A stretch of DNA of 64,000 bases from positions 28,207 through 92,206 of the IMG/VR virus record IMGVR_UViG_3300020029_000569, one strand, 5' to 3'. This DNA comes from a virus. Its lineage: Duplodnaviria > Caudoviricetes. The position numbers and the translations under genes are program-made. The notes under the pieces are model-generated. The model was not told the DNA's origin. It saw nothing but the letters and a program-made list of their open reading frames with translations, and searched no databases. Shown here piece after piece: positions 3,591 through 53,275 of the stretch; position 1 is the first letter of the stretch; each line of letters begins with the position of its first letter.

Positions 3591-3628
3591 TCAATTAAAC
3601 ATTTAACTATTAAACCAAATATAAAAAA

Positions 3629-4558: not shown

Positions 4559-4572
4559 AAATTTAATATATT

Positions 4573-5187: not shown

Positions 5188-5214
5188 TAGGGGTATTTTA
5201 ATATTTACCACCGT

Positions 5215-5248
5215 TGGGGTTGCCGTGAACGGTAGCCCCATTTTTTTT
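5215..5248 (+). terminator. Rho-independent terminator
   Basis: GGGGTTGCCG-tgaa-CGGTAGCCCC stem-loop followed by A and T8. Confidence 0.8.
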
Positions 5249-5271
5249 AAATAACACAAAATTAAAATGTA

Positions 5272-8130: not shown

Positions 8131-8141
8131 ACAATAATATT

Positions 8142-8906: not shown

Positions 8907-8941
8907 TTATCTTTGTAATCAACAAAAAACTATAATAAAAA

Positions 8942-9052
8942 ATGGAAAATCTAACAAGCAAATCAAAAATCTTCATCGAAGAAGCGTGTGGTAGTTGTGG
9001 TGGAAAGAAACCAAGTACTTACCCAAGACCACCTAAAAAACCAACACGATAA
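8942..9052 (+). CDS. 36-aa CxxC, Pro/Lys-rich peptide (MENLTSKSKIFIEEACGSCGGKKPSTYPRPPKKPTR)
   Basis: Hand translation; TATCTTTG box at 8908-8915 upstream; stop overlaps the next ATG. Confidence 0.55.
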   Translation: MENLTSKSKIFIEEACGSCGGKKPSTYPRPPKKPTR

Positions 9053-9687: not shown

Positions 9688-9689
9688 CA

Positions 9690-10301: not shown

Positions 10302-10318
10302 ACTTTAAAACAAACAAA

Positions 10319-10642
10319 ATGGAAATTAGAGACTTTTACGGAAATGGAACAGTAATGGAAGAAACCGTTAAGGATATTGCTCCAAAAGTTCAAACTACAA
10401 TCACAGTAAGAGATAAAGAAATTTATCGTGAATTGCCAGAGGGTGCAACTATTACCGAAGAAAATGTAGATATTGTAGTTGAAGAAATAGAAAATGGATG
10501 GATGAAAACCGTTAACCGATATTGCCGATTTATGAAAAAAGAAGTGGACGGTGAAGAAGAATACGATTCGTACTACAATACCAAGAAATACTATTCAAAA
10601 AACAAACCAGTTGATATAGAACTAACCTACGCAGTTTCGTAA
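10319..10642 (+). CDS. Hypothetical acidic protein
   Basis: 107-aa ORF, tightly packed in the operon. Confidence 0.55.
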   Translation: MEIRDFYGNGTVMEETVKDIAPKVQTTITVRDKEIYRELPEGATITEENVDIVVEEIENGWMKTVNRYCRFMKKEVDGEEEYDSYYNTKKYYSKNKPVDIELTYAVS

Positions 10643-10643
10643 A

Positions 10644-19720: not shown

Positions 19721-22700
19721 TGCCAATAAAAAAAACATATCAGTTAGGTAATGAAAAGTTTGATATTCCCGTAGAGGAAACACAGGCATTTTTAGCAGAT
19801 AATCCCGATGCAGTAGAACTAAGTAGCTTTGTTGTTGGGAAAGATACGTTTGATATTCCTTTGCCCGAAGTTGAATCTTTTTTAGCAGATAATCCTGATG
19901 CTAAAGAAACATTTGGCGCAGTAAAAAAAAAAGAAACTCCGATACTATCACCGAACAAACCAAAAGCAGAATATCCTATCGCAAGTGGTTTATCAAGTGG
20001 CTCAATACCTCAATCACCTACACAAAGTACCCCAACGGTACAAAGCAATGGACAATCACAAAAAAGTAGTTTTTGGAAGGATGCTATAACAGCTACTAAA
20101 GAAAATATTGCCCAACAAGGGAAAGTAAATAGACCTATTAAAGAAGATATTTTTACTCAAAATATATCAGGTGTAAAATCACCTATTGAAGTTGCAAGTA
20201 AGCCACAAAAGAAAGCAATAAAAGTTAATCTTAATGAGCAACAACAAAAAGAAGAAGATTACAAGCAGTCGTTACGAGATAAAATAAATTCAGGCATACC
20301 ATTAGATATAGAAGAAACTAAATATGTAAAAAAAGCATTTGGGAAAATTGCACCACAAATAGGTAGTTTATCTGTTGCGGAAATTAATCAAGGGTTATTT
20401 GATGCAAACAAAAAAAATACACAACAACGTAGGGATGAATTGCTCAAAGAACATGAATTTGCTGATGTAAATAATAGAATAAAAAATGGCGAAGTAAGTA
20501 AAGAAGATTTACAGATAGCACAGGATAATGGGTTAATCCCACCATTTTTAAAATCAGAACAAGCCGAACAACTAAGGGTTAATTGGAATGCTGATATTAA
20601 AAATGCTCATGCTGAAATAGATAATGCGCTTTCAAATAATATATCATCAATAGTCCAAAATCAACAAACAGAAAACGATAGGATTGACGCACTTAAAGCA
20701 GGTATCCGTTCTGAAAATTATTATCGTAAAGAAGATACGCCACAAAGGATTGCTCATATAAAAGATATGGAAAATGAGTTATTCCAACTTGAAACTAAAA
20801 GAAAAAGAGAAGATGATTACCTAAACTCATTAGTTGATAATACTATCAAAGAAAGTCAAAGAGATATAATGATGATGGGTGGTTTTGAATTTGACAAAGA
20901 TAATCGTGGATTGCTTACTGAAAAAGGGCGTGCAGAGGTGGCAAAAGCAGTAGAAGATTATGTAGCAAAACAACCAGCAAGTAAACAGTTTTTGCTTAAT
21001 TATAAAAATATCCGTAAAGAATCTTCACTAAAGTATCTCGTATCTCCTCTCATATCATCTCAATTCAAAACATCTGACGTTACAAAAGGAAATGCTTATT
21101 TAGAAGAAGTTGTCGCAAGGACAGCGGAAATATTGCCAAAGTATTTTAAGAATTACTACAAGTCAGTAGATGAAATTTCAAAAGACTTACCAAAAGAAGC
21201 AAAAGGACTTGTAAAGCAAGTCGCTGGAATAGAAGGTGGTACATTTGATAATAATTTTCGTCCAAAATTACTAAATGAGCAAGAAAAAGTAGCAGCAGTC
21301 AATACATTGAAATTCATGGAAATGAAGGGAGATGTAGATAGTCAAAATGCAAAATTTGAACAAGTAGTAAACACGCCACAAGTCAAATCGGTATTAGGGC
21401 AAGAGTTAACAGACCTTGAAAACAAATACAATAATAAGGAGATAAATGGCGCAACTTTCAAAAACGAAAGACTTAAATTATTATACCTTAATCCTCAAAC
21501 AAAATCATTAGCAGAACAATATATACAATCAGTTACAAATGCACAAAATAAGTATGAAAAAGACGTAAATGATTATTTAAAATCTATTCAGCCCGATTTT
21601 GCTAAATATACTAAAATTGATAATAAAGGAAATATAGTTTCTATTGCAGGGATGAAACCTGAAAAATTTGCATCCGTAATGACTGAATTGCAAAGTGCAA
21701 AACAAGTTTCAGAAATAAATGCAACTAAAGAAGTAATACAGGATAGAGAACAGAGAGGTAATGAAGCAATGGGTGAACCTACTGATATGAAAATAATCCA
21801 ACAAGGGTTTACGTCAGGATTAAATAATATGTACACCGCAAGGGCAAAATGGCTTTATGACCAAACAGGCATTGACTTTTTTAATGATGCAAGAATAGGT
21901 GGAGAAATGGTTTTAAATACTGCAAATCAACCTAACGAAAGTACATTTGCAAAGGACAATTTTACATTAGAAGCAGGAGATTGGATGGGTGCATTGAATC
22001 CTGCTTATATACTTCATACAGCATCTTCAAGCGCACCGTATATGATGGAAGCGATGGGTACAGGAATAGGCATAGGCGGTATTGCTAAAAATGTGCTATT
22101 AGAAGCAGGATTAGGAGAAGGAGTAGCATTATCAAGGTCGGGTAGATTAATTCAAAAATCACTTGCAGGGGCAAGCGGTGGTAGTCAGGATGCTTTTAGT
22201 ACAATGGTATCAAACTATAATGATTTAGTTAAAGAAGGATTTAGCGTTAAAGATGCTGATAGAATTTCAAAAGAAGCATTTGTAAAAGAGGTAGTACCTG
22301 ATATGTTATTTAGTGGAATTGGGATGGAAGGATTATTTAGGGCAACTGCAAAACCAACATTAAAAAATGTACTTAAAAGAACTGCTACAACATTTTTAGA
22401 ACAAATACCCGAAGGCGCACAAGAAGCTATACAAGGGTATGCTTTAGAAGATGCGAAAGGAACAAAAGAAAATATATTCAATTATGCGTTAGAGGATAAG
22501 GATGGTTTTAATAATTTGATGGGTGGTTTTTCAGGTGGATTAGGAAGCGGTACGGTAGTATCGGCAGTAGGATTGGCAAAAGATACATACGGTTGGAATA
22601 AACTTTATAATATTTCAACTTCTGATATGCAAGATGCAGTAAGATATAGTGCAGTTGCAAATATGGTAAATAATCCTTCGGATATAAAATCACAATCAGC

Positions 22701-25700
22701 ATTAGACATGATGAAATTAAGCATGGATGATTACCGAAAGGTGTATATGGAAACTCCCGAAACGGATAAATTAGCAAAAGACAAGGCACGTCAAGATTAT
22801 TCAAATTCATTAAGAACTTACGCCTATGCCAAAGAGTATAATAGGCAAGCACAAAAATCTAATGTAGAGGACATTCACGCTGATTACAAAGCACATAACC
22901 GAGCAGTAGCAAACTCGTATCAAAAGTTAGCTGATAATGCAGAAGAAGCAAATAAAAAAACATACCAAAAACAAGCTGACCATTATACTCAATTAGCGGA
23001 CAAAGCAGAATACGGACAGCAAACTCCTATCTATGCTTTTGAAACTAATACAGGTAGAGTATTCATTACAGAAAGCACAGCTAAGACACTCGCAGAAGGT
23101 AGTATTTTAGATAAAAACGATAAGTTTAATGATGCAGTAAAGAATGGAGTAATTACAGGAATACAGGTTATTGATGATAGCGAAACCAATAAAAAACTTA
23201 CTGAAAAATTTGCAGAAGCACAAAAGAAAAAAGCACCACCGATAGCACCAATCATTTCAGAAGAACAAGAAAATCAAATAGATAATTCAAATACCACACA
23301 AGGAATAGGAGTAGTTGAATCTAATGGTAAATTCACTGTTGTTAATCCTAATGGAACTAAAGAAGTATTTGATACAAAAGACGAAGCAGATGCGAGAGCA
23401 TTGGAAATAGCAAACCCTAAAACTGAAAATAAAGCAGTAGAAAATATAATATCTATTGAGGACAGAAAAAGAAAAGATTTATTTCCTGACGAATCAGAAT
23501 TTGCAGATGTTATCGGAGAAAGCGGTAAAAATTCAAATATATCATCATACAGAGAAGTGAACGGTATTGGAATATCTGAATATACTAATCCTGATAACGG
23601 TTTGGTTGATGTAATAATGTCAGGCACATCAGATAACGACTATGTAGGATACGTTAGAATTTATGAAAACGGTAAGCCGACAGAAAGGTGGACTTCTAAA
23701 ATGGAGAACAAGTCAGGCAATAAAGAGAATTTTAAAACTATGATTTCGGAAGTACAAAAATTACTTCCACAAGGGCATGAATATACCGAAAAGACAAACA
23801 TTTCATTAGACGGATTAAGAGTTTATGCCAATCAATTAAACAGAGGATATGAAATTGCTACCGATGAAAATGGAGATGCTATAACAAACAATGTAGAATT
23901 AAATAACGCTACATTAGAGGCATTACAGGGGGCAAAAACAGAAAGCGAAGTAAGTAGTTTATACGACAAAAAAACAGGCATAACTAAAGAAGAATTTGAT
24001 AAAATAAAAGATAAAATAAATTCTCTTATTCCTAATACAAGGGTACTATTCAATTCTTCTAATGGTTCTGTCATAATAAAATTACCTGTACTAAAATCTA
24101 AAACCCAAAATGCTACACAAAACACAGAAATTGCAAGTGCAGAAAGCACAACAACTATTGGACAAAACGAATTGCCCCAAACGGAAGGAACGGTTAATGA
24201 AAATGTTACTGAAACTCAAAAACCTATTTCAGCAACATTAGAAGGTAAACCTATAACCATTGAAAAAACAGAAACGGGTTACACCTACACCACCGCAAAA
24301 GGAATAGTAGAGGAAGTTTCAGAAACAGAACACCAAGAAAATATTGCAGACAACTCATTGGTTATACCAAAAACTACGCCTGATGAAAAAATAGTAAATG
24401 ATAATACATTTACAAGGGATGATATGAAGTCAGTATCTGACGGTACAGGACTAGCCAAGAAAGGTGCTGAGGTAATGACAACTGACAAAGTAGAATCTAA
24501 TTTAAGAGTAGGCGATAAGGTTACATTTTTTGCAGAAAAAGAAAGAAGTGGGGTATGGGATGGAAAATCAATAAAAGACAAAGACGGAAATCCTTGGGGG
24601 GTAATGGGTATTTTAGCAGATACTAATGGATGGATAAGAAATGATACTAAAATTGAAGAATCTAAAAAAGAAGCAGTAGTAAGCAGTACGGATGCTATCG
24701 AAGTACCCACAACCACTGATACGCCTACTGCTGAAACTGCAACCAAAGGAGAACCCGAAAGAATATCACAACCTATTGAATTAGACCCAAACATTACATC
24801 ACCATTAAATACAGAACAAGATGCCATTCAAAAGTCAGAAACAGAGGGCGGCGTGTTACGCACAGAACAACCCAAATTGGAACTGCAAAGCGTGGGAGAA
24901 GGAAACACCCAAGAGCAAACCGCTACCACAGAAAGTGAAGCCAAAAAAGAAACCATAACTCCTATTCAAAGAATAACAGGTAACAAAGATGCAGTAACAT
25001 TAAGTGGGTTAACAGAAAAAGAAAGGCAACAACAAATTGCAGAAAGAGATAACAGTTTAAAACTTTCAAAAGAAAAAGAAGCTGAAAGTAATTTAGCGGG
25101 ACAAGTACGAAGGTTTAATGAAATGCGCAGGAATGATGCCAAAAGACCAAGATTACTTAATGACATTAGAAAAGCATCAACGGAACAAGGATTTGAAGTT
25201 AAGTATGACGGTAAGGGAATTGAGGTATTAAAGAAAACCAAAAAAGGCAAACCGACTAAAATAAACTCTTATTCATCAGAAGTGGGCAGACGTAGCACAA
25301 CTAATGAAAAAGCATTGCATGAAAGAAGTGAAGCGGTACAAGACCTTTATGTGAAATTAATGGATTTGGGTATTGATTTGGATTTAAGAAATTCAGACGA
25401 TAATAGTCGTTTTTCTGAATCACAAATAGAAAGTGCAATAACAGATATTGAAAATGGAATACCAAGCAGACAAGCAAATGAAATATTAAACAAAGTTGAA
25501 GCATTAGCGGAAACGGGTAAATTAGAAGTAGGTGATAAAGTAAGTGGGTATAAGTCAATTCCTATTGATGAATTAATTACAGAAGCAGAAGAATTAAGAA
25601 GCGAAGAACTTTTTAAAGACCTTACAAATGATGAAGTTTTTGAACTTTACTCAAACGAATTACTTGCATCAAACGAAACCGATAACATTATAAACCAAGA

Positions 25701-28700
25701 ATATGAAAGAATTAACAATGAAGGAGCAGTTTCAAGCACTCCCGAAACAAGCACAACAGACAGCAGTACAGCAAATGAAGAAACATCTGATGAAAAAGGA
25801 ACTAACGAAGCGACTTATGAAACAAAAGAAACAGATGTAGTTGAAAGCGCATCCAAAAATATATTTAACGAAACAAAAGAAAGCATCAGCAAAAAAATAA
25901 AATCAGTTCAAGAAAAAATATCAAAAGCGATAAATGATGGGATAAGTAAGTGGGGTTCTAAAAAAGGGTATTACGGGGAGGAATATGGAGATCAAAACGA
26001 AAAAGAAATTAATATCCCTAATTATACTTTTTCCGATAAGAGAAATGTAGAAGGTTCTGAATATAAAGAAGATTTCGATAATTATAGAAAACTAACAACA
26101 GAAGCTCAGAAGTTACATGAGTTATTGGATGCTGTGAATCCAAAATTAGAATCAGAAAGTTCAAAAAACCTAAAGAAAAGGTTAGGTAGTATTGCCTTTA
26201 ATTTTAGTTCTAATTCAGATACGGATAAAATACTTTTATCAAAAGAGGTAGATAATATTCTTAAAGAGTTAGAAAGCAGAGACGAAAATGTTGATGGAGA
26301 AAAACTGTTAAGCGATTATTACAATGCGGATGCAGATGAATCGCAAATTCAACAAATGAAAAATAATTCTGCTGAAATAACAGAGTTGATTAAATCAAAT
26401 ACGCCCACAAAACTGATTGGAATAGTACCAGAAAAAATATCAGAATCATTTGATAAACTTGCTGATAAAATATTAGCATTAAGGTCAAAAGGAGATAGCC
26501 TAAAAACTGATATTACTTTAGGACTTAAAGATGCCGCACTAACAGAAATAGCATCTCTAATAAGAGATATTGGTACAGTCGCAGACAAGGTAGCAGAGGT
26601 GATAAAAGCTATCAATAAAGTACTTTCAAAACCCGAATACAAAGACCTAAATAAAGATGAAATTAGGAATGAAGTTTTATCTGCCATTAATCCTATCAGC
26701 GATGCAAATAAAAAGTACTTAGACGGGGTAATTAAAAATATCGAAGATGGCAAAACTACTCTCGAAGAAGAAATAAAAGACATTCAAGACGACCTACCTA
26801 AAAGGTACGCTGACAAATACATAAAATACCTCAATGATAATTATACACCAAAACAAGAAAATAAAAAAGAAAAAACCGATAACACCAAAACCGAAGCCAA
26901 AGAAACAGAAGTATTAAGCGAAGAAGATAATCAAGCAGGCATAGCACATAGACTGACAGAAGAAACAAGGAAAGAATTAGGATTGCCAGAATATGAAAAA
27001 GAAACGATAACTGATGCCGAATTGGATGGTATGGCTGATGCTGAAATTAAAAACGGGTACAATATTAAAAAGTTAGTTACTAAAATGGCAAAAGGGGTAT
27101 TACCTACTGCCTTAGAACAAACTATAATGAAAAAGTATCTTGCAAGTTTGGAAGCGCAGATAGAAAAAAATCCTACCAATGAATCAATAAACGATTACAA
27201 AACAGCCGTTGAAGCGAGTGATGCAATAGGTTCAGAAATAGGTAGAAGTCTTAGAAGCAGGAGAGGTGGTATCATTAAAGATGATAGTATTGCTGCATAC
27301 TTTTTAACTGAATTGGAATCATCGGGTGTTGACGAATTAACCGAAGCGCAAAAGAACAAAGTACAAAAAGAGTTCAACGATATTCAGGAAGCGAACAGGA
27401 AATTACAAGAAAAAATAGCACAGTTAGAAATTGAAAATGCTAAAATATTGGCAGACAAGGCTATTGCTAAAGAAGCAAAAACAAAGTCTAAAAAAGAAGA
27501 TTTAAAGAAGCAAAAAGAAGATATTAAAGAATCTATCAAGCAGAAACTAAAAGAAGCAAGAAGCCAATTAAGTTCTACCCCTGTACCGTATCTGAATGAA
27601 ATATTAGCAATTACACCTGATGTTGCTAAATTAGTAAAAGTATATGCAGAAGAAGGGATTATCAAATTAGACGAAATTGTAGATAATATCCATGCTATTA
27701 TTAAAGAAAATTCAGACAACATAACTAAAAAAGATATTATAGATATTATAGCGGGTAAATACAATGAAAGAAAACAAACCCGTTCTGATATTGCAAAACA
27801 ACTTTTAGACCTTAGAACACAAGCTAATTTAGTCGGCAAATTAGAAAGTTTAGAAAATGGGATTGAACCTAAAACCGAAACTAAAAAAGTGGAAAGGAAT
27901 AAGGAAATATCTTCTTTGAGAAAAAAAATAAATGAGAATTATCTTACTAAATTATCCTCTGCAAAAAATACTATTCAAAACCAAATTGACAAACTTAGAG
28001 AAGATTTAAGCACAGGAAACTTTTTAGATAAACAAGAAAACCAAGAACTTAAATTAGACAAAGAAGCTATTGCATTAAAAGACGAATTGATTAAGTTGAA
28101 GAAAGAAAGAGATATTAGACTTTTAAGGCAACAATATCAAAACAGGTCATTAAAGCAGAAAGCAGTTGATTCTTTTTTGGAGATAATTAATGTGCCAAGA
28201 ACAATAATGAGTTCAATGGATTTTTCAGCCCCTTTAAGACAGGGGTTAATTGCAAGCATATCCCACCCCACAGTTGCATTTAAAGCATTTGGGGAAATGT
28301 TCAGGCAAGCGGTTTCTCAAAAAAGATTTGACAGGTGGTTTAATGATATTCGAGAAAGCGAGTTATTTGAAATAATGGAGAAAAGTGGTTTGTATGTAGC
28401 TGCCCCTCACGACCTTAGATTATCTGCCAAAGAAGAACAGTTTATGAATAATCTTGCAGAAAAAATACCGTTCATTGGGGGTGCAGTAAGAATACCTCAA
28501 TCAGTACCATTAATAGGGGGTAAGAAAATTGGAGGATTAATAAAAGGCAGTGAACGTGCGTATGTATCTTACTTAAATAAAATGAGAGTAGATTTATTTA
28601 CACAAGGCGCACAGGTATTAGAATCAATGGGTAAGACTTATGATAATAGTCCTAAAGAATATGAAGGTCTTGCAAGTTTTGTAAATAACTCAACAGGTCG

Positions 28701-29412
28701 TGGTAAATTAGGTGCTATTGAATCCGCAGCACCAATATTAAATTCAGTATTCTTTTCTCCAAGATTAATTGCATCGAGGCTTAACTTATTAAATCCCTTG
28801 TACTATGCTCAATTACCACCATACGCCCGTAAAATGGCATTAAAAGATATGACTAAATTTATAACTTTTGGTGTTACATTATTGGCTTTAATAAAACAAA
28901 CGTGGGGGTGTCCTGATGATTGCCCCGAATGTACAGATTGCGCCAATATCGAATTAGACCCAAGAAGTACTGATTTTGGCAAAATACGAGTAGGTAATAC
29001 AAGGTATGATGCATGGGGTGGCTTTCAACAGTACGCAAGGATAATAGCGCAAATGATAACGGGGGAAGCAAAATCTTCAACAACGGGTAACGTCAGAAAA
29101 ATAGATGGTGAAGGTTTGTTTGGCAAGGATAGAGCCGATGTTTTAGGATCATTTTTTAGGGGTAAATTAGCACCTGTTCCTGCATCTATTTTAGATATTG
29201 TATCGGGTAGGAATATTATTGGAGAAAAAGTAGATGCAAAAATGATAGCAGAAAGAACCCTATTACCTCTAATATACAGTGATGTTAAAGAAGCAGTAAA
29301 TGAGCAAGGAATTAAAGCATTAGCAACAGTAGGATTGCCCGCAGCATTTGGTATCGGGGTAAATACATATACTCCAAAAAAATCAAAATACGATAAAGAA
29401 GAAACTAAATGA
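19720..29412 (+). CDS. Giant internal virion/polyvalent-type protein
   Basis: 3230 aa; helical/coiled-coil; N-terminal duplicated ~30-aa motif; C-terminal DPRSTDFGKIRVGNTRYDAWGG domain. Confidence 0.65.
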   Translation: MPIKKTYQLGNEKFDIPVEETQAFLADNPDAVELSSFVVGKDTFDIPLPEVESFLADNPDAKETFGAVKKKETPILSPNKPKAEYPIASGLSSGSIPQSPTQSTPTVQSNGQSQKSSFWKDAITATKENIAQQGKVNRPIKEDIFTQNISGVKSPIEVASKPQKKAIKVNLNEQQQKEEDYKQSLRDKINSGIPLDIEETKYVKKAFGKIAPQIGSLSVAEINQGLFDANKKNTQQRRDELLKEHEFADVNNRIKNGEVSKEDLQIAQDNGLIPPFLKSEQAEQLRVNWNADIKNAHAEIDNALSNNISSIVQNQQTENDRIDALKAGIRSENYYRKEDTPQRIAHIKDMENELFQLETKRKREDDYLNSLVDNTIKESQRDIMMMGGFEFDKDNRGLLTEKGRAEVAKAVEDYVAKQPASKQFLLNYKNIRKESSLKYLVSPLISSQFKTSDVTKGNAYLEEVVARTAEILPKYFKNYYKSVDEISKDLPKEAKGLVKQVAGIEGGTFDNNFRPKLLNEQEKVAAVNTLKFMEMKGDVDSQNAKFEQVVNTPQVKSVLGQELTDLENKYNNKEINGATFKNERLKLLYLNPQTKSLAEQYIQSVTNAQNKYEKDVNDYLKSIQPDFAKYTKIDNKGNIVSIAGMKPEKFASVMTELQSAKQVSEINATKEVIQDREQRGNEAMGEPTDMKIIQQGFTSGLNNMYTARAKWLYDQTGIDFFNDARIGGEMVLNTANQPNESTFAKDNFTLEAGDWMGALNPAYILHTASSSAPYMMEAMGTGIGIGGIAKNVLLEAGLGEGVALSRSGRLIQKSLAGASGGSQDAFSTMVSNYNDLVKEGFSVKDADRISKEAFVKEVVPDMLFSGIGMEGLFRATAKPTLKNVLKRTATTFLEQIPEGAQEAIQGYALEDAKGTKENIFNYALEDKDGFNNLMGGFSGGLGSGTVVSAVGLAKDTYGWNKLYNISTSDMQDAVRYSAVANMVNNPSDIKSQSALDMMKLSMDDYRKVYMETPETDKLAKDKARQDYSNSLRTYAYAKEYNRQAQKSNVEDIHADYKAHNRAVANSYQKLADNAEEANKKTYQKQADHYTQLADKAEYGQQTPIYAFETNTGRVFITESTAKTLAEGSILDKNDKFNDAVKNGVITGIQVIDDSETNKKLTEKFAEAQKKKAPPIAPIISEEQENQIDNSNTTQGIGVVESNGKFTVVNPNGTKEVFDTKDEADARALEIANPKTENKAVENIISIEDRKRKDLFPDESEFADVIGESGKNSNISSYREVNGIGISEYTNPDNGLVDVIMSGTSDNDYVGYVRIYENGKPTERWTSKMENKSGNKENFKTMISEVQKLLPQGHEYTEKTNISLDGLRVYANQLNRGYEIATDENGDAITNNVELNNATLEALQGAKTESEVSSLYDKKTGITKEEFDKIKDKINSLIPNTRVLFNSSNGSVIIKLPVLKSKTQNATQNTEIASAESTTTIGQNELPQTEGTVNENVTETQKPISATLEGKPITIEKTETGYTYTTAKGIVEEVSETEHQENIADNSLVIPKTTPDEKIVNDNTFTRDDMKSVSDGTGLAKKGAEVMTTDKVESNLRVGDKVTFFAEKERSGVWDGKSIKDKDGNPWGVMGILADTNGWIRNDTKIEESKKEAVVSSTDAIEVPTTTDTPTAETATKGEPERISQPIELDPNITSPLNTEQDAIQKSETEGGVLRTEQPKLELQSVGEGNTQEQTATTESEAKKETITPIQRITGNKDAVTLSGLTEKERQQQIAERDNSLKLSKEKEAESNLAGQVRRFNEMRRNDAKRPRLLNDIRKASTEQGFEVKYDGKGIEVLKKTKKGKPTKINSYSSEVGRRSTTNEKALHERSEAVQDLYVKLMDLGIDLDLRNSDDNSRFSESQIESAITDIENGIPSRQANEILNKVEALAETGKLEVGDKVSGYKSIPIDELITEAEELRSEELFKDLTNDEVFELYSNELLASNETDNIINQEYERINNEGAVSSTPETSTTDSSTANEETSDEKGTNEATYETKETDVVESASKNIFNETKESISKKIKSVQEKISKAINDGISKWGSKKGYYGEEYGDQNEKEINIPNYTFSDKRNVEGSEYKEDFDNYRKLTTEAQKLHELLDAVNPKLESESSKNLKKRLGSIAFNFSSNSDTDKILLSKEVDNILKELESRDENVDGEKLLSDYYNADADESQIQQMKNNSAEITELIKSNTPTKLIGIVPEKISESFDKLADKILALRSKGDSLKTDITLGLKDAALTEIASLIRDIGTVADKVAEVIKAINKVLSKPEYKDLNKDEIRNEVLSAINPISDANKKYLDGVIKNIEDGKTTLEEEIKDIQDDLPKRYADKYIKYLNDNYTPKQENKKEKTDNTKTEAKETEVLSEEDNQAGIAHRLTEETRKELGLPEYEKETITDAELDGMADAEIKNGYNIKKLVTKMAKGVLPTALEQTIMKKYLASLEAQIEKNPTNESINDYKTAVEASDAIGSEIGRSLRSRRGGIIKDDSIAAYFLTELESSGVDELTEAQKNKVQKEFNDIQEANRKLQEKIAQLEIENAKILADKAIAKEAKTKSKKEDLKKQKEDIKESIKQKLKEARSQLSSTPVPYLNEILAITPDVAKLVKVYAEEGIIKLDEIVDNIHAIIKENSDNITKKDIIDIIAGKYNERKQTRSDIAKQLLDLRTQANLVGKLESLENGIEPKTETKKVERNKEISSLRKKINENYLTKLSSAKNTIQNQIDKLREDLSTGNFLDKQENQELKLDKEAIALKDELIKLKKERDIRLLRQQYQNRSLKQKAVDSFLEIINVPRTIMSSMDFSAPLRQGLIASISHPTVAFKAFGEMFRQAVSQKRFDRWFNDIRESELFEIMEKSGLYVAAPHDLRLSAKEEQFMNNLAEKIPFIGGAVRIPQSVPLIGGKKIGGLIKGSERAYVSYLNKMRVDLFTQGAQVLESMGKTYDNSPKEYEGLASFVNNSTGRGKLGAIESAAPILNSVFFSPRLIASRLNLLNPLYYAQLPPYARKMALKDMTKFITFGVTLLALIKQTWGCPDDCPECTDCANIELDPRSTDFGKIRVGNTRYDAWGGFQQYARIIAQMITGEAKSSTTGNVRKIDGEGLFGKDRADVLGSFFRGKLAPVPASILDIVSGRNIIGEKVDAKMIAERTLLPLIYSDVKEAVNEQGIKALATVGLPAAFGIGVNTYTPKKSKYDKEETK

Positions 29413-46384: not shown

Positions 46385-47191
46385 TAACGGTCTGACGCTA
46401 TACGAAGGCAGGGAATAAGATGCACTCCCTTTCAGCCTTGCACAAATGATAAATAGACTTGTTTATTTGAAAAATTATATTTATCTTTGTGGTATGAAAA
46501 ATTGTTACGTTTACATACACAAAAAAGCAGACACGAAAGAAGTGTTTTACGTTGGAATAGGAAACCAATTAAAATATAGGAGAGCTTATCAGGTTACTGC
46601 AAATCGTAGAAGCAAAGAATGGGCAAGGGTTGTTGAGAAACACGGAGTTGAGGTTGAAGTATTTGCGGATAATTTAACAAGAGAAGAAGCTTTTGAAATA
46701 GAAATTTCTCTTATTAAAAAATATGGCAGAATAGACTTAGGCAATGGTTGTTTAGTGAATATGACAAAAGGTGGAGATGGTATTTATGAATTATCAGAAG
46801 AAGCTAAAAAACGAAATCCGAGAAATAGGGGGCAGAAAAGAGCAGAACACGCAACAAGAATTACTAAAGAAAAACTAACTGGTAGAGTTTTAAGTGAGGA
46901 AACAAAACACAAGATGAGGTTGTCTAAATTAGGTAAAAAACAATCAAAAGAGCATTTAGAAAAGAGAAAGCAAGGTTTAAAAAACACACATTATAAGGGT
47001 AGGACAATTTTAAATACTGAAACCAATGAAACATTTAACTCTATTTCAGAAGCAGCAAGGTTTTATAATATTGAAATTTCTACACTAAATAGAAAGCTAA
47101 ATGGCAAAACCAAAAACGATACGAATTTAATTATTAAATAAAGAAACGCTCACTTTAGCAGTACGCCCCTGCTTTTGTATAGCGTATGTTA
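46385..47191 (+). repeat. attC-like site 1, interrupted by a GIY-YIG gene
   Basis: TAAC ggtctg ACGCTATACGAAGGCAGGG (46395-46413) ... CCCTGCTTTTGTATAGCGT (47167-47185) at GTTA. Confidence 0.75.
46494..47141 (+). CDS. GIY-YIG homing endonuclease with NUMOD3/NUMOD1-type DNA-binding repeats
   Basis: YVYIH..FYVGIG..R..E..LVNMTKGGDG; LSEETKHKMRLSK; FNSISEAAR; own TATCTTTG box at 46482-46489. Confidence 0.88.
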   Translation: MKNCYVYIHKKADTKEVFYVGIGNQLKYRRAYQVTANRRSKEWARVVEKHGVEVEVFADNLTREEAFEIEISLIKKYGRIDLGNGCLVNMTKGGDGIYELSEEAKKRNPRNRGQKRAEHATRITKEKLTGRVLSEETKHKMRLSKLGKKQSKEHLEKRKQGLKNTHYKGRTILNTETNETFNSISEAARFYNIEISTLNRKLNGKTKNDTNLIIK

Positions 47192-47214
47192 TGGGGCGTT
47201 TTTAATCGAAATTT

Positions 47215-47496
47215 ATGAACACATACGAAATTCAAAAAGACCTTCAAAAGGCACTCGAAAACATTGATAAGAACGATTATATTCTTCGTTCACTAATCGC
47301 TCACTTGGAAGAACAATGTACTGAGGAAGAAGTAAAATTGGTTGAAGATAAAATATTTGAACTTGAACCGAAAGAATATGATAATAGGGAAGATTTCTTA
47401 GAAGACTATCAGCCAATTTTTGATTTGGTTGAATTTCCTTTCAAAGACTGCTTTCGTCTTTTTGACAAACGGCAACTTAATTGGGATGCTCTGTAA
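47215..47496 (+). CDS. Cassette A: acidic hypothetical protein
   Basis: 93 aa between GTTATGGGGCGTTTT and AAAATGCCCTATAAC. Confidence 0.7.
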   Translation: MNTYEIQKDLQKALENIDKNDYILRSLIAHLEEQCTEEEVKLVEDKIFELEPKEYDNREDFLEDYQPIFDLVEFPFKDCFRLFDKRQLNWDAL

Positions 47497-47505
47497 AATG
47501 CCCTA

Positions 47506-47598
47506 TAACGTTTTGCGGCTTTGTGTCTGTTTGCCCCTTGCACAAAGTTTCAAGTTACCACAAATGCTGATGGGGCAAATAGCACAAAACCGCTGTTA
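47506..47598 (+). repeat. attC-like site 2 (93 bp)
   Basis: TAAC gtttt GCGGCTTTGTGTCTGTTTGCCCC ... GGGGCAAATAGCACAAAACCGC t GTTA. Confidence 0.8.
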
Positions 47599-47626
47599 GG
47601 CGTATGTATTTAAAAACTTTGACGAA

Positions 47627-48286
47627 ATGATAAAGCACCCTGCAACGTACACAAATAGTTTCATTCCAAAATTTGCTGAACTGCTTATTGGATGTGAAAA
47701 CGTACTTGACATTTTCGGAGGCATTGGAAAACTTGCCCTGATAAAAGAACACGGATTTACTGGCAAAGTAATCTGTAATGAATTAGAACGAGAATGGGCG
47801 GAAACATCACCGTATAATGTTGATGAATGGCATATTGGAGATGCTGCGAATATGCAGTGGGCTGAAAGTAACTCTTTTGATGCAATATGCACAAGCCCGA
47901 CCTATGGCAATAGAATGGCTGACCACCATAACGCAAAAGATGGAAGCAAAAGAGTTACTTACAAACATTTTTTAGGGCGGGATTTGAACGAAGCTAATAC
48001 TGGTAGAATGCAATGGGGTGATAAATACCGAGAAAAGCACTTGGAGATTTACAAAGAATGTGCAAGGGTTCTAAAAAATGGTGGGCTTATGATTGTGAAT
48101 GTTTCCGACCATATCCGAAAAGGGCAAGTTGTGAATGTGGTAGAATGGCATAAGGAAGCACTAACAAATTTTGGAATGAAACTTATAGACGAAATAAAAA
48201 TTGAAACACCGAGAATGGGATTTGGGCAGAACGCTAAAAGCAGGGTGCAACACGAATGTATCTTGGTCTTTCGGCATGGCGTATAA
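47627..48286 (+). CDS. Cassette B: SAM-dependent DNA methyltransferase (N4C/N6A-type)
   Basis: LDIFGGIG SAM motif then TSPTY catalytic-like motif; stop codon is the TAA of TAAC. Confidence 0.8.
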   Translation: MIKHPATYTNSFIPKFAELLIGCENVLDIFGGIGKLALIKEHGFTGKVICNELEREWAETSPYNVDEWHIGDAANMQWAESNSFDAICTSPTYGNRMADHHNAKDGSKRVTYKHFLGRDLNEANTGRMQWGDKYREKHLEIYKECARVLKNGGLMIVNVSDHIRKGQVVNVVEWHKEALTNFGMKLIDEIKIETPRMGFGQNAKSRVQHECILVFRHGV

Positions 48287-48409
48287 CGTTTTGCGTGTAT
48301 AAGAAGTGGCGGATTAGAAATCCAAAACTTTCAGCAAACGCAGAACTTTGATAGAATGACAAAACTTTAAATTAACCAAAAAAACCGCCATTTTTTATAC
48401 ACGCTGTTA
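48284..48409 (+). repeat. attC-like site 3 (126 bp)
   Basis: TAAC gttttg CGTGTATAAGAAGTGGCGG ... CCGCCATTTTTTATACACG ct GTTA. Confidence 0.85.
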
Positions 48410-48512
48410 TAAGCTGGTGCGGTTTATTAACGCAGAATTTGAATCAAAGAACGAAACCTTTTTCTTTTCTTTTTTGAGCGATGGCAAAAATAAATTTGAA
48501 AAATTTAAAAAT

Positions 48513-49355
48513 ATGATTGATATAAACAAAAATTACAATGAAAGCAATTTAGAAACAATGGCAAAGATGCCTGATTGTTTTGTAGATTTAACGGTAACAT
48601 CACCACCGTATGATAATTTAAGAACCTATGAGAACGATGACTACTTAACTTGTGGTGAGTTTGAAGATATGGTTAAGGAGCTTTGGCGAATTACAAAAGA
48701 TGGTGGTGTAGTTGTTTGGATTGTAGGTGATTCAGTTAAAAACGGAAACGAAAGTGGGACAAGTTTTTATCATGCTTTGACTTTTAAGAAGTATGGTTGG
48801 AACTTATTTGATACTATGATTTACTTTAAAAATGGCGGTCTAAATTCAGGTGCGAATAACTCATACATTCAAAAGTTTGAGTATATGTTTGTTTTTTCAA
48901 AGGGTAAAATAAAAACAACAAACATTATTGAGGATAGACCAAACGAACACACAAAGCCACGAAAAAAGAAAAAACGAAACCCTGATGGCACATTTAGAAT
49001 ACAGGAAGTGCTAACGAAAGAACAAGGCAAGAGATATAATATTTGGTGTGTAAATACAGGAATACCGCACTCAACCCAAGACAAAATCGCTTATGAGCAT
49101 CCTGCAATATTCCCAGAAGTACTTGCTAATGACCACATAATAAGTTGGAGTAATGAAGGTGATTTGGTTTACGACCCTTTTATGGGAAGTGGAACAACTG
49201 CTAAAATGAGTATTCTAAATAATAGAAATTGGATTGGAAGCGAAATATCTTCTGAATATTGTGAGATTATTGAAGAACGTATTAAAAAAGCGTGGGAAGA
49301 AAAAAGAAAAGAAAAAGATTTACAAGCAGGAACTCTATTCGGAGACGAAATGTAG
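48513..49355 (+). CDS. Cassette C: beta-class N4C/N6A DNA methyltransferase
   Basis: TSPPY, HPAIFP, DPFMGSGTT; likely ATG at 48513. Confidence 0.92.
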   Translation: MIDINKNYNESNLETMAKMPDCFVDLTVTSPPYDNLRTYENDDYLTCGEFEDMVKELWRITKDGGVVVWIVGDSVKNGNESGTSFYHALTFKKYGWNLFDTMIYFKNGGLNSGANNSYIQKFEYMFVFSKGKIKTTNIIEDRPNEHTKPRKKKKRNPDGTFRIQEVLTKEQGKRYNIWCVNTGIPHSTQDKIAYEHPAIFPEVLANDHIISWSNEGDLVYDPFMGSGTTAKMSILNNRNWIGSEISSEYCEIIEERIKKAWEEKRKEKDLQAGTLFGDEM

Positions 49356-49365
49356 CACTTGCTTA

Positions 49366-49435
49366 TAACGTTAAAACTACACGCTGGTTGCCTATTTATT
49401 CCAATGCTTCGGCAACTAGCTTGTAGTGATTGTTA
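49366..49435 (+). repeat. attC-like site 4 (70 bp)
   Basis: TAAC gttaaa ACTACACGCTGGTTGCC ... GGCAACTAGCTTGTAGT gatt GTTA. Confidence 0.8.
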
Positions 49436-49542
49436 GTAGCTGTTTATCTAATTTACATTTATTTTGAAAATATTTGTAATTTTATTAGGTTATACAAAAA
49501 TTAGTTGTATATTTGTATAACAAAATCAAACAAATACAAATT

Positions 49543-49767
49543 ATGAAAACATCAACTTACACTTACCAATTTACAAACGGAACTTTTACAATCACAAAAG
49601 GAATAAGAACAAAATTTGATTGGTTTGTTGAAGTAGAATTAAATCCAATTGAATGTGATGGATATGTTGAAAAGAGATTTATAAAACTAGACCAAAATTT
49701 ATTTTTAACTTTAAAAAATGCAAAAGAAACCACAATTAAATTACTAACTAAATTTAACTTATTATAA
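49543..49767 (+). CDS. Cassette D gene 1, hypothetical
   Basis: ATG at 49543 after a TATATTTG box at 49508-49515. Confidence 0.6.
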   Translation: MKTSTYTYQFTNGTFTITKGIRTKFDWFVEVELNPIECDGYVEKRFIKLDQNLFLTLKNAKETTIKLLTKFNLL

Positions 49768-50180
49768 TGAAACTAATTCCAATGACTAATTTTGTTTTCC
49801 AGCAAAAAGAAAAATTAACAGATATTTACGGTAATGCAAAAGATGTGTTAGAAATTGACAAATCAAGAATAAATTTTATTCACAGCGTTTCAAATTACGC
49901 AAAGTTCCTAAATGAAACAATTTCACTAGGAATGCTAGTTCCTTGTGATGAAAAAGGAATTGAAATAATTATAGATACTGAGCACCGAGAAGATAGCACA
50001 AGTTGGTCACCTGATGAAATTGAACAATATAAAAAAGCTGAAACCGAAATTTATTTAAAAACAACAATAGATTTAGATACTGCTAAATTTCACGTTAAGC
50101 AAAAAAGAACAATTGAATATTTTACCTCTTTTAATATTGAAATATCCGAGTATGCTATTAAAAAATTTCAATTAGAATAG
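49767..50180 (+). CDS. Cassette D gene 2, hypothetical phage protein
   Basis: 137 aa; MKLIPMTNFV..NYAKFL..LGMLVPCDE. Confidence 0.65.
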   Translation: MKLIPMTNFVFQQKEKLTDIYGNAKDVLEIDKSRINFIHSVSNYAKFLNETISLGMLVPCDEKGIEIIIDTEHREDSTSWSPDEIEQYKKAETEIYLKTTIDLDTAKFHVKQKRTIEYFTSFNIEISEYAIKKFQLE

Positions 50181-50182
50181 TT

Positions 50183-50350
50183 ATGCAAAGACAATCAATA
50201 ATAGTATTTATTCAAGGCGATAGAATAGAAACGTATGGAAACTTAAAAAAGTGCTGTGAATGTGAGAACTTGAAATATCACACTTTAGCACGTTTAAAAT
50301 TTCCAATTCGGCTAAATGATGTAGTTATACACAAAACGCTCTTTAAATAG
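50183..50350 (+). CDS. Cassette D gene 3, 55-aa putative DNA-binding protein
   Basis: Hand translation MQRQSIIVFIQGDRIETYGNLKKCCECENLKYHTLARLK... Confidence 0.55.
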   Translation: MQRQSIIVFIQGDRIETYGNLKKCCECENLKYHTLARLKFPIRLNDVVIHKTLFK

Positions 50351-50354
50351 CTAC

Positions 50355-50481
50355 TAACGTATCGGTGCTATACGATGTGGCGGATTTTTAGTACTAAAGT
50401 CCAATACGAAGCACCAAAGTTGAATTTAAAATAAATGTTTAATCGAATCACGTCAGCCGCCATATTGTATAGCACTTGTTA
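50355..50481 (+). repeat. attC-like site 5 (127 bp)
   Basis: TAAC gtatcg GTGCTATACGATGTGGCGG ... CCGCCATATTGTATAGCAC tt GTTA. Confidence 0.85.
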
Positions 50482-50512
50482 GCGGATGCCGTTTCTTCAC
50501 AATAATTTCAAA

Positions 50513-50749
50513 ATGGAATACAAAGCACAAGAATTAAAAAAAGATTTAATTACAAAGCGTTGCATTGATAACGATATGACAATGGATGAAGCTTGTAAAG
50601 AAATAGGAATTTCAAAAGCTACATTATCAAGGTTGGAAAAGTCAAAACTGCCCGATGTCGAAACTCTTGGTAAGGTATGCACTTGGTTAGGGACAGAGCC
50701 AAATAAATACTTTGTCATTGTTCGCAAGCGTCAAGACGGTTTCCGCTAA
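50513..50749 (+). CDS. Cassette E: XRE-family HTH regulator
   Basis: MTMDEACKEIGISKATLSRLEKSKLPDVETLGKVCTWL; stop in TAAC. Confidence 0.85.
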   Translation: MEYKAQELKKDLITKRCIDNDMTMDEACKEIGISKATLSRLEKSKLPDVETLGKVCTWLGTEPNKYFVIVRKRQDGFR

Positions 50750-50871
50750 CGGTCGAGTATTGCCGAAGGTGGGGCATTATACCACTAATGTTTAATTGAA
50801 ATACAAAACTTGATAATATGAAAAATGTTGATTTGAAAAACGAAACCCCCACTTGCGGCAATACTTTGTTA
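50747..50871 (+). repeat. attC-like site 6 (125 bp)
   Basis: TAAC ggtcg AGTATTGCCGAAGGTGGGG ... CCCCACTTGCGGCAATACT tt GTTA. Confidence 0.85.
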
Positions 50872-51207
50872 TGCCCCGTTTTGGGTCAAACTTACAACTA
50901 CTTTGATGACGGGAAGATTAGACCAAGTAGAAGAATGGAAGTTGTTATTACAGAAATTATCCCATTTAATGAAATTGATGCAGAAACTTTGGAATCTTGG
51001 AAAGAAGAAGTTGAAGAATGTAATTGGCTTTACGCTAAAGAAACTGATTTCTTTGTAAAGGGTGATTTAAAAGTTTCTGATGATAAGATTGAAAAGATAA
51101 TTTTTGTAAGAACTATCAATAATAATGATGGTTGGTTTAGTCTTGGATGGTGGGGAGGTAGATTAGATATTGACGGTTCGTTGAACGCTCTGTTAAATGG
51201 GGCATAA
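50818..51207 (+). CDS. Cassette F: hypothetical protein (start codon inside site 6)
   Basis: 129 aa; stop in TAAC. Confidence 0.7.
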   Translation: MKNVDLKNETPTCGNTLLCPVLGQTYNYFDDGKIRPSRRMEVVITEIIPFNEIDAETLESWKEEVEECNWLYAKETDFFVKGDLKVSDDKIEKIIFVRTINNNDGWFSLGWWGGRLDIDGSLNALLNGA

Positions 51208-51330
51208 CGTAAAAGCATTGCTGTCAGTGGCGGAAATTGAAGCACAAAAGTTAAATTATGCAGAAAAGTTTATTTGAAAATATACAGTTGAATGAAGTAC
51301 ATCAGCCGCCATTGCAGCAATGCAGTGTTA
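51205..51330 (+). repeat. attC-like site 7 (126 bp)
   Basis: TAAC gtaaaa GCATTGCTGTCAGTGGCGG ... CCGCCATTGCAGCAATGC agt GTTA. Confidence 0.85.
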
Positions 51331-52271
51331 GCCGCAGTACTTTGTTATTAGGTGATTGCTTAATTGAAAGCGATAAAATTGAAAGCGGAACAGTTGATTT
51401 GATATTGACTGATTTACCTTATGGAAATATGGGAATGGAAGGTACAAATCACGGAATGACAGGGAAAGTTAGCTGGGATGAAACTATAAACCCAAGTGAT
51501 TTATTTGTGGTTGCGGATAGAATTTTGCGAAAAAACGGCAAAATGATTTTGTTTAGCCAAGAACCATATACAAACGAATTGATAAGTAAGGCAATACCTA
51601 ATTTACCATATAACTATAAGGCTTTTTGGGAGAAAGACCATTTTGCCAACGCTTTAAATGCTAAAAAAGCAATGTTAAATTATGCAGAAGAAATACTTAT
51701 ATACAGCAAAAACAACCCAAAACACGACTTTGAAGGATTACACCCATTGAGAGTATACTTTTTAACTCAAAAAGAAGAAAGTAAATTAACCGATAGCGAT
51801 ATAAAAAAAATACTTGGTAACGGAATGGGTGGGCATTACTTTACTAATGGCAGTCAGTTTTGTTTACCTACTTTGGCTAATTATGAAAAACTACAAACTA
51901 CTGGATTTTTTAAGCGTGATTGGAATGAATTAAAGCAAATAGATACGGAATACCGAACCGAACTATTAAAGCAAATGAATGACAAATACCCAAGCACCTT
52001 TAACCTATGGGAAGGCAACAAATACAAAAGCAACATCCTGAAATACAAAAAGGATTACAACGGCTACCACCCCACACAAAAACCTGTTTTATTGCTCGAA
52101 GATTTAATCAAGACTTTCAGTAATGAAAATGATTTAGTAGTTGATTTGACAATGGGAAGCGGCTCAACTGGTGTAGCCTGTCGAAATACAAACAGAAGAT
52201 TTATCGGCATAGAGAAAGATGAAAAGTATTTTGAGATTGCAGTACGGAGGGTGTCTGCGTATTGCGGCTAA
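51258..52271 (+). CDS. Cassette G: beta-class N6A DNA methyltransferase (start inside site 7)
   Basis: TDLPY, HPTQKP, DLTMGSGSTG; stop in TAAC. Confidence 0.92.
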   Translation: MQKSLFENIQLNEVHQPPLQQCSVSRSTLLLGDCLIESDKIESGTVDLILTDLPYGNMGMEGTNHGMTGKVSWDETINPSDLFVVADRILRKNGKMILFSQEPYTNELISKAIPNLPYNYKAFWEKDHFANALNAKKAMLNYAEEILIYSKNNPKHDFEGLHPLRVYFLTQKEESKLTDSDIKKILGNGMGGHYFTNGSQFCLPTLANYEKLQTTGFFKRDWNELKQIDTEYRTELLKQMNDKYPSTFNLWEGNKYKSNILKYKKDYNGYHPTQKPVLLLEDLIKTFSNENDLVVDLTMGSGSTGVACRNTNRRFIGIEKDEKYFEIAVRRVSAYCG

Positions 52272-52388
52272 CGGTTTCGGGCTTGGCGAAGTGGCTGAAC
52301 CCGAAGCTAAACTGGAACACAGAACTTTAAAATTAAGAACGAATGATTGATAGAATTACCGAACAGCCATTTCGCCAAACCCGTGTTA
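52269..52388 (+). repeat. attC-like site 8 (120 bp)
   Basis: TAAC ggttt CGGGCTTGGCGAAGTGGCTG ... CAGCCATTTCGCCAAACCCG t GTTA. Confidence 0.85.
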
Positions 52389-53149
52389 TGTGCAGGGCGG
52401 TTGATAACCTTGAACTCCTTTTGTCGCAACCTGATGAAAGTGTAGATTTGATTTACTGCGACATTCTTTATGGAACTGGTAGAAATTTCGGTGATTACCA
52501 AGACTTAAAACCGATTAGAAGCGAAATTGAAGCACATTATTTGCCACGATTAAAAGAAATGCACCGAGTATTAAAACAAAACGGCTCAATTTATTTGCAA
52601 ATGGATTATAGAATATCCCATTGGATTAGGTTGATAATGGATGATATTTTTGGGTATGATAATTTTGTAAATGAAATTATATGGTGCTACACTATGCCAA
52701 ACAACAACAAAAGGAGATTTAATGCAAAACACGATAATATATTTTCTTACGCAAAAACTAAAGACTATACATTTAATTGGCAAAGCGTATTAACAGATTA
52801 TTCCGAAAGTAGTAAAGAAAGAGGTAAGTATGGAAGTAACTCAATGATGGGTAAAGCCGACAGCCCTTTATCTAAAAACGGAGGTAAAATTATGGAAGAT
52901 TGGATGGTAATACACACACTTAAAGGCAATTCAAAAGAGTATTCAAAATACCCAACCCAAAAGCCAAAAGCATTAATTGAACGAATTATAAAAGCAAGTT
53001 CAAACGAAGGAGATACGGTTGCAGATTACTATTTAGGTTCAGGAACGACAGCAGTAGTTTGTAAAGAATTAAACCGAAATTTTATAGGTTGTGACATTAA
53101 CCCAAAGGCTATTGAAATAACGAAAGCTCGATTGAATGGTGGTCAGTAG
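52343..53149 (+). CDS. Cassette H: beta-class DNA methyltransferase with variant catalytic motif
   Basis: LIYCDILY (in place of DPPY), YPTQKP, DYYLGSGTT. Confidence 0.85.
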   Translation: MIDRITEQPFRQTRVMCRAVDNLELLLSQPDESVDLIYCDILYGTGRNFGDYQDLKPIRSEIEAHYLPRLKEMHRVLKQNGSIYLQMDYRISHWIRLIMDDIFGYDNFVNEIIWCYTMPNNNKRRFNAKHDNIFSYAKTKDYTFNWQSVLTDYSESSKERGKYGSNSMMGKADSPLSKNGGKIMEDWMVIHTLKGNSKEYSKYPTQKPKALIERIIKASSNEGDTVADYYLGSGTTAVVCKELNRNFIGCDINPKAIEITKARLNGGQ

Positions 53150-53275
53150 CATTGCACATAACTACTCGCTTGCTCTGTAAAACTACCTATATAAGTACTA
53201 TATGGAGTTATAGGCGCACCAATGGTTTGTTAATGACTATCACAATTATTCCGTAAATCCGCAAAAATTTAAACA

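Follow-up and report, generated by a model that had tools for sequence, protein, structure and literature searches.

Cassette array in the window

The stretch analyzed here (64,000 nucleotides, referred to as the window) belongs to a 92-kb phage record, IMGVR_UViG_3300020029_000569, and the host of this phage is a Flavobacterium-type bacterium. On the plus strand of the window, at 46385-53162, lies an array of eight hairpin-bearing sites and a terminal TAAC half-site without a hairpin, which together bound eight co-oriented cassettes. The cargo comprises four N6/N4 DNA methyltransferases, one helix-turn-helix (HTH) regulator, and small open reading frames (ORFs) to which no function was assigned, every one of them on the plus strand. 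The original prediction, which came from the sequence alone, had described these sites as separating co-oriented genes in an integron-like cassette array. All eight were present at the coordinates it gave, and their arms were recovered by a repeat search (I4, I9, I10, I11, and I14).

Each site opens with TAAC-G and a spacer of 4-5 nt; an imperfect stem of about 20 bp follows, its two arms enclosing a variable loop, and a spacer of 1-2 nt leads to the closing GTTA. Each unit of the array has a single hairpin. The seven uninterrupted sites measure 70, 93, and 120-127 bp, in agreement with the predicted range of 70-127 bp, and the TAA of TAAC serves as the stop codon of four genes (at 48284, 50747, 51205, and 52269), as had also been noted. 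An alignment of 30 sites from the window and from Baltic Flavobacterium phages was used to build a covariance model, R1. TAACG and TGTTA were invariant in 30 of 30 aligned sites, and the mean column identity was 49%. Of the cells, 84% were paired; shuffling lowered this share to 62% and sliding the partner to 36-48%. Compensatory changes were seen in 18 of the 20 stem pairs. A C x A mismatch was present in 23 of the 30 sites, a neighboring T-A pair in all of them, and a G.T pair in 28. Thus, the sites conserve structure, not sequence, as predicted, and they have the size and shape of the attC type, with AAC/GTT end triplets, imperfect inverted repeats, and conservation at the level of structure.

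When R1 was run over the 92-kb genome, it found exactly the seven uninterrupted sites, all on the plus strand and all inside 47500-52394. Site 1, which is split by a homing endonuclease gene, was missing among these matches. An Rfam scan of the region gave chance-level matches only and no attC family. A loose pattern-plus-stem scan of the window was dropped, since shuffled sequences matched as often as the real one; the significance of the sites therefore comes from the model, the clustering, and the covariation. Folding with DNA parameters gave a more stable plus strand in 22 of 33 sites, with a mean difference of 0.7 kcal/mol. Such a small difference does not tell which strand is active, and the sense strand was rejected as the clearly better folder.

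The features of the array are listed in Table 1. Site 1 nests one mobile element in the site of another, and the endonuclease gene holds its arms about 750 bp apart; a Pfam search with the 231-aa endonuclease at E ≤ 0.01 gave no match. The start of the cassette 3 methyltransferase listed in the table is the ORF boundary, and the sequence suggests that its true start is likely the ATG at 48514. The terminal half-site is complementary to GTTATGTGCA at 52385 and forms an attI-like end of the array. Beyond the terminal TAAC, TAYWATAT-like bases (TACTATATG, TATTATATAT, and TACAATATT) were observed at several array ends (window 53163-53230; L089, L124, and L001). When an attI consensus was sought across the terminal junctions, only TAAC was common to them, with TAYWATAT-like bases next to it in about half; these bases may possibly form a weak attI-like motif. 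Elsewhere in the window, the structural region contains two very long plus-strand ORFs, at 11713-16809 (1698 aa) and 19720-29412 (3230 aa).

Table 1. Sites, cargo genes, and terminal half-site of the array (window coordinates)
Feature	Position	Strand	Details and evidence
Site 1	46385-47191	+	TAACG, arms 46395-46413 and 47167-47185, GTTA; heads cassette 1; repeat search (I10)
Homing endonuclease gene, 231 aa, in the loop of site 1	46446-47141	+	phrog_314, E 1.4e-19
Cassette 1 cargo: 93-aa ORF, function unassigned	47215-47496	+	ORF, Pfam, and PHROGs searches
Site 2, 93 bp	47506-47598	+	R1 match; 85-90% identity to Baltic phage site
Cassette 2 cargo: 219-aa N6/N4 DNA methyltransferase	47627-48286	+	PF01555, E 1e-11
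Site 3, 126 bp	48284-48409	+	R1, 108 bits; inverted repeat I4
Cassette 3 cargo: N6/N4 DNA methyltransferase	48417-49355	+	PF01555, E 7e-41
Site 4, 70 bp, short loop	49366-49435	+	R1, 44.8 bits
Cassette 4 cargo: three small ORFs (84, 137, and 55 aa)	49513-50350	+	ORF list, blastp
Site 5, 127 bp	50355-50481	+	R1, 97.3 bits; inverted repeat I11
Cassette 5 cargo: 87-aa HTH (Cro/C1-type) regulator	50486-50749	+	PF13443, PF01381, PHROGs
Site 6, 125 bp, loop with ATG at 50818	50747-50871	+	R1, 87.3 bits; inverted repeat I14
Cassette 6 cargo: 129-aa ORF, function unassigned	50818-51207	+	ORF, Pfam, and PHROGs searches
Site 7, 126 bp, loop with ATG at 51258	51205-51330	+	R1, 82.6 bits
Cassette 7 cargo: 337-aa N6/N4 DNA methyltransferase	51258-52271	+	PF01555, E 2e-32
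Site 8, 120 bp, loop with ATG at 52343	52269-52388	+	R1, 101.5 bits; inverted repeat I9
Cassette 8 cargo: 268-aa N6/N4 DNA methyltransferase	52343-53149	+	PF01555, E 5e-53
Terminal half-site, TGCACATAAC then T, without hairpin	53153-53162	+	inverted repeat I8

Cassette movement, cassette ends, and polarity

A counterpart of site 2 was found in 37 Baltic Flavobacterium phage records at 85-90% identity and with different cargo. These phages bear arrays of the same site family, which cover about 8 of 38 kb in the complete Baltic phage genomes. Two of them, lillamy9-1 and lillamy9-3, have the same length of 38,268 bp and are made of 98-100% identical blocks, and their sole difference is the place of one 439-bp unit, composed of G, the hairpin, GTTATAACTC, an ORF, and GAGTTATAAC. 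The point of departure in lillamy9-3 reads ..ATAAC↓GTTAAAGC.. (arrow, junction), and the unit now occupies the terminal half-site at the array end, flanked by ..GCTTATAAC↓ and ↓TACAAT. Hairpin and downstream ORF therefore move together, the exchange falls inside the ATAAC common to the junctions, and cassettes can enter at the terminal half-site in the manner of attI. The match positions that distinguish the two phages, 3074 and 3513, each recur in several Lillamyvirus isolates. In addition, snork6-2 is without another cassette, and the boundaries are exact at TAAC↓G. Cassette mobility is thus observed in relatives of the window phage. These results support the predicted platform for cassette capture and shuffling, because near-identical phages differ by whole cassettes at TAAC↓G; a fixed gene order without gain or loss at the boundaries, which would have spoken against it, is not what the Baltic phages present. 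An all-against-all blastp of ORFs showed that the window phage shares only cassette genes with lillamy9-1 and with the Polaribacter phage P12002L. The 137-aa and 55-aa ORFs (window 49767-50350) lie 3 nt apart in one cassette, and their homologues in lillamy9-1 (gp017 and gp019; L001 1-1079) occupy separate cassettes in reversed order.

The two ends of a cassette are matched to each other. The hairpin is followed by GTTA and 5-6 bases complementary to those preceding TAAC at the end of the same cassette. Beyond GTTA/TAAC, 6-7 of 8 bases were complementary between own ends in seven of the eight cassettes, whereas the 56 pairs of non-own ends averaged 2.7 and never exceeded 5, and the total terminal complementarity reached 9-10 bp in the same proportion of cassettes. 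It was likewise found in Baltic phages and in a bacterial array. By analogy, this relation is the one that would be expected of a cassette passing through a circular form. A homologue of cassette 2 in L085 (about 18040-18740; 80% identical) has a regular R box, GTTATACGCC...GGCGTATAAC. The six bases after GTTA are inverted in place, reading GGCGTA in the window and TACGCC in L085 (window 47595-47606 and 48277-48288), and the hairpin preceding the cassette differs between the two. Site 2 (window 47505-47598) is 90% identical to L001 4001-4094 from a Baltic siphovirus, with the similarity running from ATAAC to GTTA, and the flanking genes are unrelated. Thus, the hairpin of site 2 is by itself an exchangeable module.

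The phage cassettes are flipped relative to bacterial and classical ones, and each hairpin forms a unit with the gene that comes after it. Of 93 ORFs in nine bacterial arrays, 82 were on the strand opposite the site model, whereas about 112 of 122 ORFs in viral contigs and two phage-like contigs binned with metagenome-assembled genomes (MAGs) were on the strand of the model. At IMG/VR loci, 193 of 197 model matches were on the gene strand, and many loci have a methyltransferase start inside the site; sites 6-8 here hold the ATG of their gene in the loop. All 10 cassette ORFs of the window share the strand of the site model, so the arrangement of complete integrons, with the site after the gene, was not found there. 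The cargo strand in phages corresponds to the attC bottom strand; therefore, the site precedes the gene and its loop gives the leader and often the start codon. When the sites are read in the bacterial (classical) orientation, the observed exchange point matches the classical G↓TT position.

Recombinases and their linkage to the sites

Searches of the 92-kb phage record gave no match to PF00589 (tyrosine recombinase), PF00239 (serine recombinase), or PF01797 (Y1 transposase). A PF00589 search of five complete relative phages also gave none; these five phages have 0-15 R1 matches each, and in the four with 10-15 the matches are on one strand within about 8 kb. A HUH (Y1) transposase or a serine recombinase was ruled out as the enzyme, since neither had a match in the genome, and a recombinase common to the phages was rejected because blastp of lillamy9-1 and P12002L with the window phage gave only cassette genes. 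The window phage has no recombinase gene, so the enzyme would act in trans, encoded either by the host chromosome or by another phage infecting the same cell. The original prediction had placed the enzyme elsewhere in the phage genome or in the host; the first of these places does not hold, and a trans-acting enzyme is plausible, given that a Xer-like recombinase adjoins arrays in Flavobacteriaceae.

The bacterial genomes were reached through a methyltransferase search. R1 matched 67 of 151 sampled Flavobacteriaceae genomes (44%) and none of 101 genomes of a betaproteobacterial order. A new covariance model and a search of Bacteroidota had been proposed along with the original prediction, as had a search for a tyrosine recombinase beside homologous arrays. 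Many of the Flavobacteriaceae matches form chromosomal arrays, and the varied genes that these carry include ones for a STAND NTPase, TIR-Mrr, and a beta-lactamase-fold protein. At least 12 genomes have a gene for a tyrosine recombinase of about 375-410 aa at a distance of 1.5-13 kb from the sites, placed in a single fixed geometry. In L068, GTTGTAGCC comes about 40 bp past the stop of the recombinase gene and forms pairs with GGCTACAAC, located where the first cassette ends. Five viral or MAG contigs (L083, L089, L038, L124, and L126) have a homologue of the recombinase, at 38-46% identity, immediately 3' of their array, and in L083 a homologue of cassette 8 with an identical R box directly adjoins the recombinase gene.

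The array-linked recombinase scored 232 bits with NF040815 (XerA-type) and 192 bits with the integron-integrase model TIGR02249, for which the cut-off is 265; nothing in five array-bearing genomes reached the TIGR02249 cut-off. Its alignment with VchIntIA falls into two pieces, with 29 residues where IntI4 has 72 (IntI4 179-250), about 43 fewer. The missing stretch is the region of the IntI-specific domain, and the catalytic motifs are present. From this gene neighborhood we infer that a Xer-like recombinase without the IntI-specific domain most likely drives the sites.

Several of these loci carry further elements. In the Flavobacteriaceae array of L068, a group II intron reverse transcriptase/maturase gene (7170-8486, minus strand) lies on the strand opposite the cargo. 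The site family also occurs in contigs binned to Chitinophagales, Saprospiraceae, and Sphingobacteriales, and in many phage contigs. A phage-like contig binned with a Chitinophagales MAG (L023, 49-16652) has a 17-kb array of at least 16 sites, with N6/N4 and three C5 DNA methyltransferases and a glycosyltransferase as cargo; after the array come genes for a LAGLIDADG protein and a ribonucleotide reductase. On a 215-kb Bacteroidetes MAG contig (L020), the array at 3094-11106 is interrupted by a DDE transposase gene, and its cargo has both orientations, with methyltransferases placed phage-wise and SNase and others bacterial-wise.

Interpretation and comparison with known systems

We consider it quite probable that the array consists of eight mobile cassettes and belongs to an integron-like system restricted to Bacteroidota and their phages, which would be served in trans by a Xer-like enzyme and would carry anti-restriction cargo. 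In the proposed mechanism, a cassette would run from the folded site through GTTA and 5-6 cassette-specific bases to the cargo gene or genes and then to the complementary bases and TAAC. The folded site, presumably single-stranded when recognized, would be made of G, a spacer of 4-5 nt, a stem of about 20 bp with the C x A mismatch and the G.T pair, a variable loop, and a spacer of 1-2 nt. Strand exchange would take place within the TAAC↓G junction, so that cassettes could be excised and put back. Excision would most likely yield a circle, with the two ends paired into an R box, followed by reinsertion, for which the hairpin-less terminal TAAC half-site would be the favored target in the role of attI. 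The enzyme would be a Xer-like tyrosine recombinase without the IntI-specific domain, provided by the host chromosome or a co-infecting phage, and the cargo, mainly orphan DNA methyltransferases, would most likely be an exchangeable anti-restriction kit. With less assurance, though still on balance, we favor the wider proposal that Bacteroidota and their phages share an integron analogue missed by standard tools and run by a Xer-like enzyme, which virulent phages would borrow to reshuffle flipped, self-starting methyltransferase cassettes. If a Xer-like enzyme drives the system, cassette capture would have arisen, or persisted, outside the IntI lineage. The model gives a concrete account of how phages could replace their methyltransferase genes so quickly, and it is directly testable because the Baltic phages are in culture. 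A previous report connected the variation in their methyltransferase content with how efficiently they plate on different hosts and left the sites unnoted (Nilsson et al., 2020; PMC7077304).

The site family, which the original prediction could not place in earlier work, has been described in part. Clusters of attC sites (CALINs) were reported in phages including the Polaribacter phage P12002L, which carries methyltransferases (Qi et al., 2023; PMC9892861). That study described two sites in P12002L and used classical attC tools and IntI1; one of the sites, P12002L_attC1, appears there as a phage attC prediction and gave no recombination with IntI1 in E. coli. We assign P12002L_attC1 to the present family by reading its sequence; R1 misses the shorter P12002L sites. 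The study makes no mention of the 37 Baltic phage records, and the sections of it that were read or searched contained nothing on an inverted polarity, complementary cassette ends, the movement of cassettes between isolates, or a Xer-like partner. In our literature search, no paper was found that describes the site family or its recombinase.

Several observations weigh against the proposed system. The cassette movements were seen in relatives, and no recombination was observed for the window phage itself. The junction identities of 5-7 bp would formally be compatible with microhomology-driven events. Cassette 2 lacks end complementarity, and its hairpin accompanies other cargo in Baltic phages; exchanges therefore occur at the GTTA side too, which the simple model does not predict. 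The putative link between enzyme and sites comes from gene neighborhood, and several of the contigs called viral or MAG-binned may be misassigned. Folding gives no clear preference for one strand, so either may be the active one. Finally, P12002L_attC1 is the only member of the family that was tested, and its failure with IntI1 fits another enzyme but proves nothing.

Three other explanations were weighed. The sites could be ordinary attC sites used by a canonical host IntI with its specific domain, the phage array being a plain CALIN like those already known. The layout agrees with this, including AAC...GTT ends, R and L boxes, lengths of 57-141 bp, and stops overlapping the sites; HattCI called P12002L_attC1 an attC site, and the bacterial array holds a group II intron, as is known for attC sites. 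However, P12002L_attC1 was the one site without recombination in the IntI1 assay (PMC9892861), none of five array-bearing genomes had a TIGR02249 match at the family cut-off, and the adjoining recombinase is about 43 residues short where VchIntIA has the extra domain. The betaproteobacterial genomes gave no R1 match (0 of 101), and IntegronFinder 2.0 surveys report almost no integrons in Bacteroidetes (PMC9024848). We regard this explanation as unlikely. Slightly less likely still is that the hairpins are regulatory stem-loops resembling the promoter/stem-loop motifs (PeSLs) of phages, with shuffling as a by-product of general or microhomology recombination of the phage and no site-specific enzyme. 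Cassette shuffling by PeSLs is a phage precedent, the leaders and start codons in the loops fit regulatory stem-loops, and neither the window phage nor the five complete relatives have a recombinase. But the stems vary in sequence from site to site and thus offer no homology for recombination; the junctions fall at one exact position with only 5-7 bp in common; the complementarity of own ends would not arise from homologous exchange; and in bacteria, as in some viral contigs, the same sites have a tyrosine recombinase gene beside them.

Least probable of all, and in our view very improbable, is that the hairpins work at the RNA level only, in processing, stability, or display of the translation start, and that the cassette boundaries are incidental. 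The uniform sense-strand placement of the phage sites, the G.U-compatible pair in 28 of 30 sites, and the start codons in the loops would all fit an RNA role. In bacterial arrays, however, the genes are on the opposite strand, so that a transcript would bear the complement of the site. Whole cassettes were gained, lost, or moved precisely at the sites, and the invariant TAAC/GTTA and own-end pairing have no rationale in RNA, although an additional RNA role is possible. Taken together, our results indicate that the integron-like system is real, with a Xer-like recombinase as its probable enzyme.

Integrons are viewed as a mainly proteobacterial device defined by IntI, and their attC sites are imperfect inverted repeats of the form R''-L''...L'-R', with AAC/GTT end triplets, lengths of 57-141 bp, and a conserved structure. 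The present system is similar to integrons, especially sedentary chromosomal ones, in its arrays of small cassettes, its AAC...GTT imperfect palindromes conserved in structure, the pairing of each cassette's opening bases with the beginning of the site that belongs to it, and insertion at a hairpin-less site at the array end. A tyrosine recombinase gene lies at the insertion end, here in bacteria and some viral contigs, and the group II intron in the bacterial array L068 recalls the group IIC-attC introns. Unlike in integrons, the recombinase is Xer/XerA-like and has no IntI-specific domain; the stems are about 20 bp long with a fixed C x A mismatch and G.T pair and spacers of 5 versus 1-2 nt; and the phage cargo is on the other strand, with the site before the gene and holding its start. 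R1, moreover, finds nothing in a betaproteobacterial order. An adjacent intI with the extra domain, which would make a complete integron, was found neither in the 92-kb phage nor beside the bacterial arrays. The integron likeness that had been predicted thus stands for the array, the ends, and the mobility, but not for the position of the hairpin, which heads the downstream gene, or for the recombinase.

Similarities also extend to phage systems. The PeSLs of T4-type phages are sequence-conserved motifs that recombine by homology. Like the present sites, they flank accessory genes, mark gene gain and loss in hyperplastic regions, and carry expression signals; in contrast, only structure and TAAC/GTTA are conserved here, exchange occurs at a precise point, and the sites are associated with a dedicated recombinase family. 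Membership among the PeSLs was rejected, since the stems differ and only TAACG and TGTTA are invariant at 49% mean column identity. A hairpin transposon of the IS200/IS605 type, which would have a Y1 HUH transposase and a subterminal hairpin at either end, was rejected as well, with no PF01797 match and one hairpin per unit. The phage CTX integrates at dif through the host XerCD, which acts on the folded single strand of the phage. By analogy, both cases would involve a host-supplied Xer-type recombinase acting on a hairpin of phage DNA, the difference being that CTX inserts a whole phage genome into one chromosomal site, whereas many small cassettes are stacked here. Among the closest known counterparts are the CALINs of virulent phages, which share with the present array an integrase-less attC-type cluster with DNA methyltransferases and P12002L_attC1 itself (Qi et al., 2023). 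If the sites are counted as attC-type, the window array, with eight sites in 6.8 kb and no recombinase in the record, is itself a CALIN.

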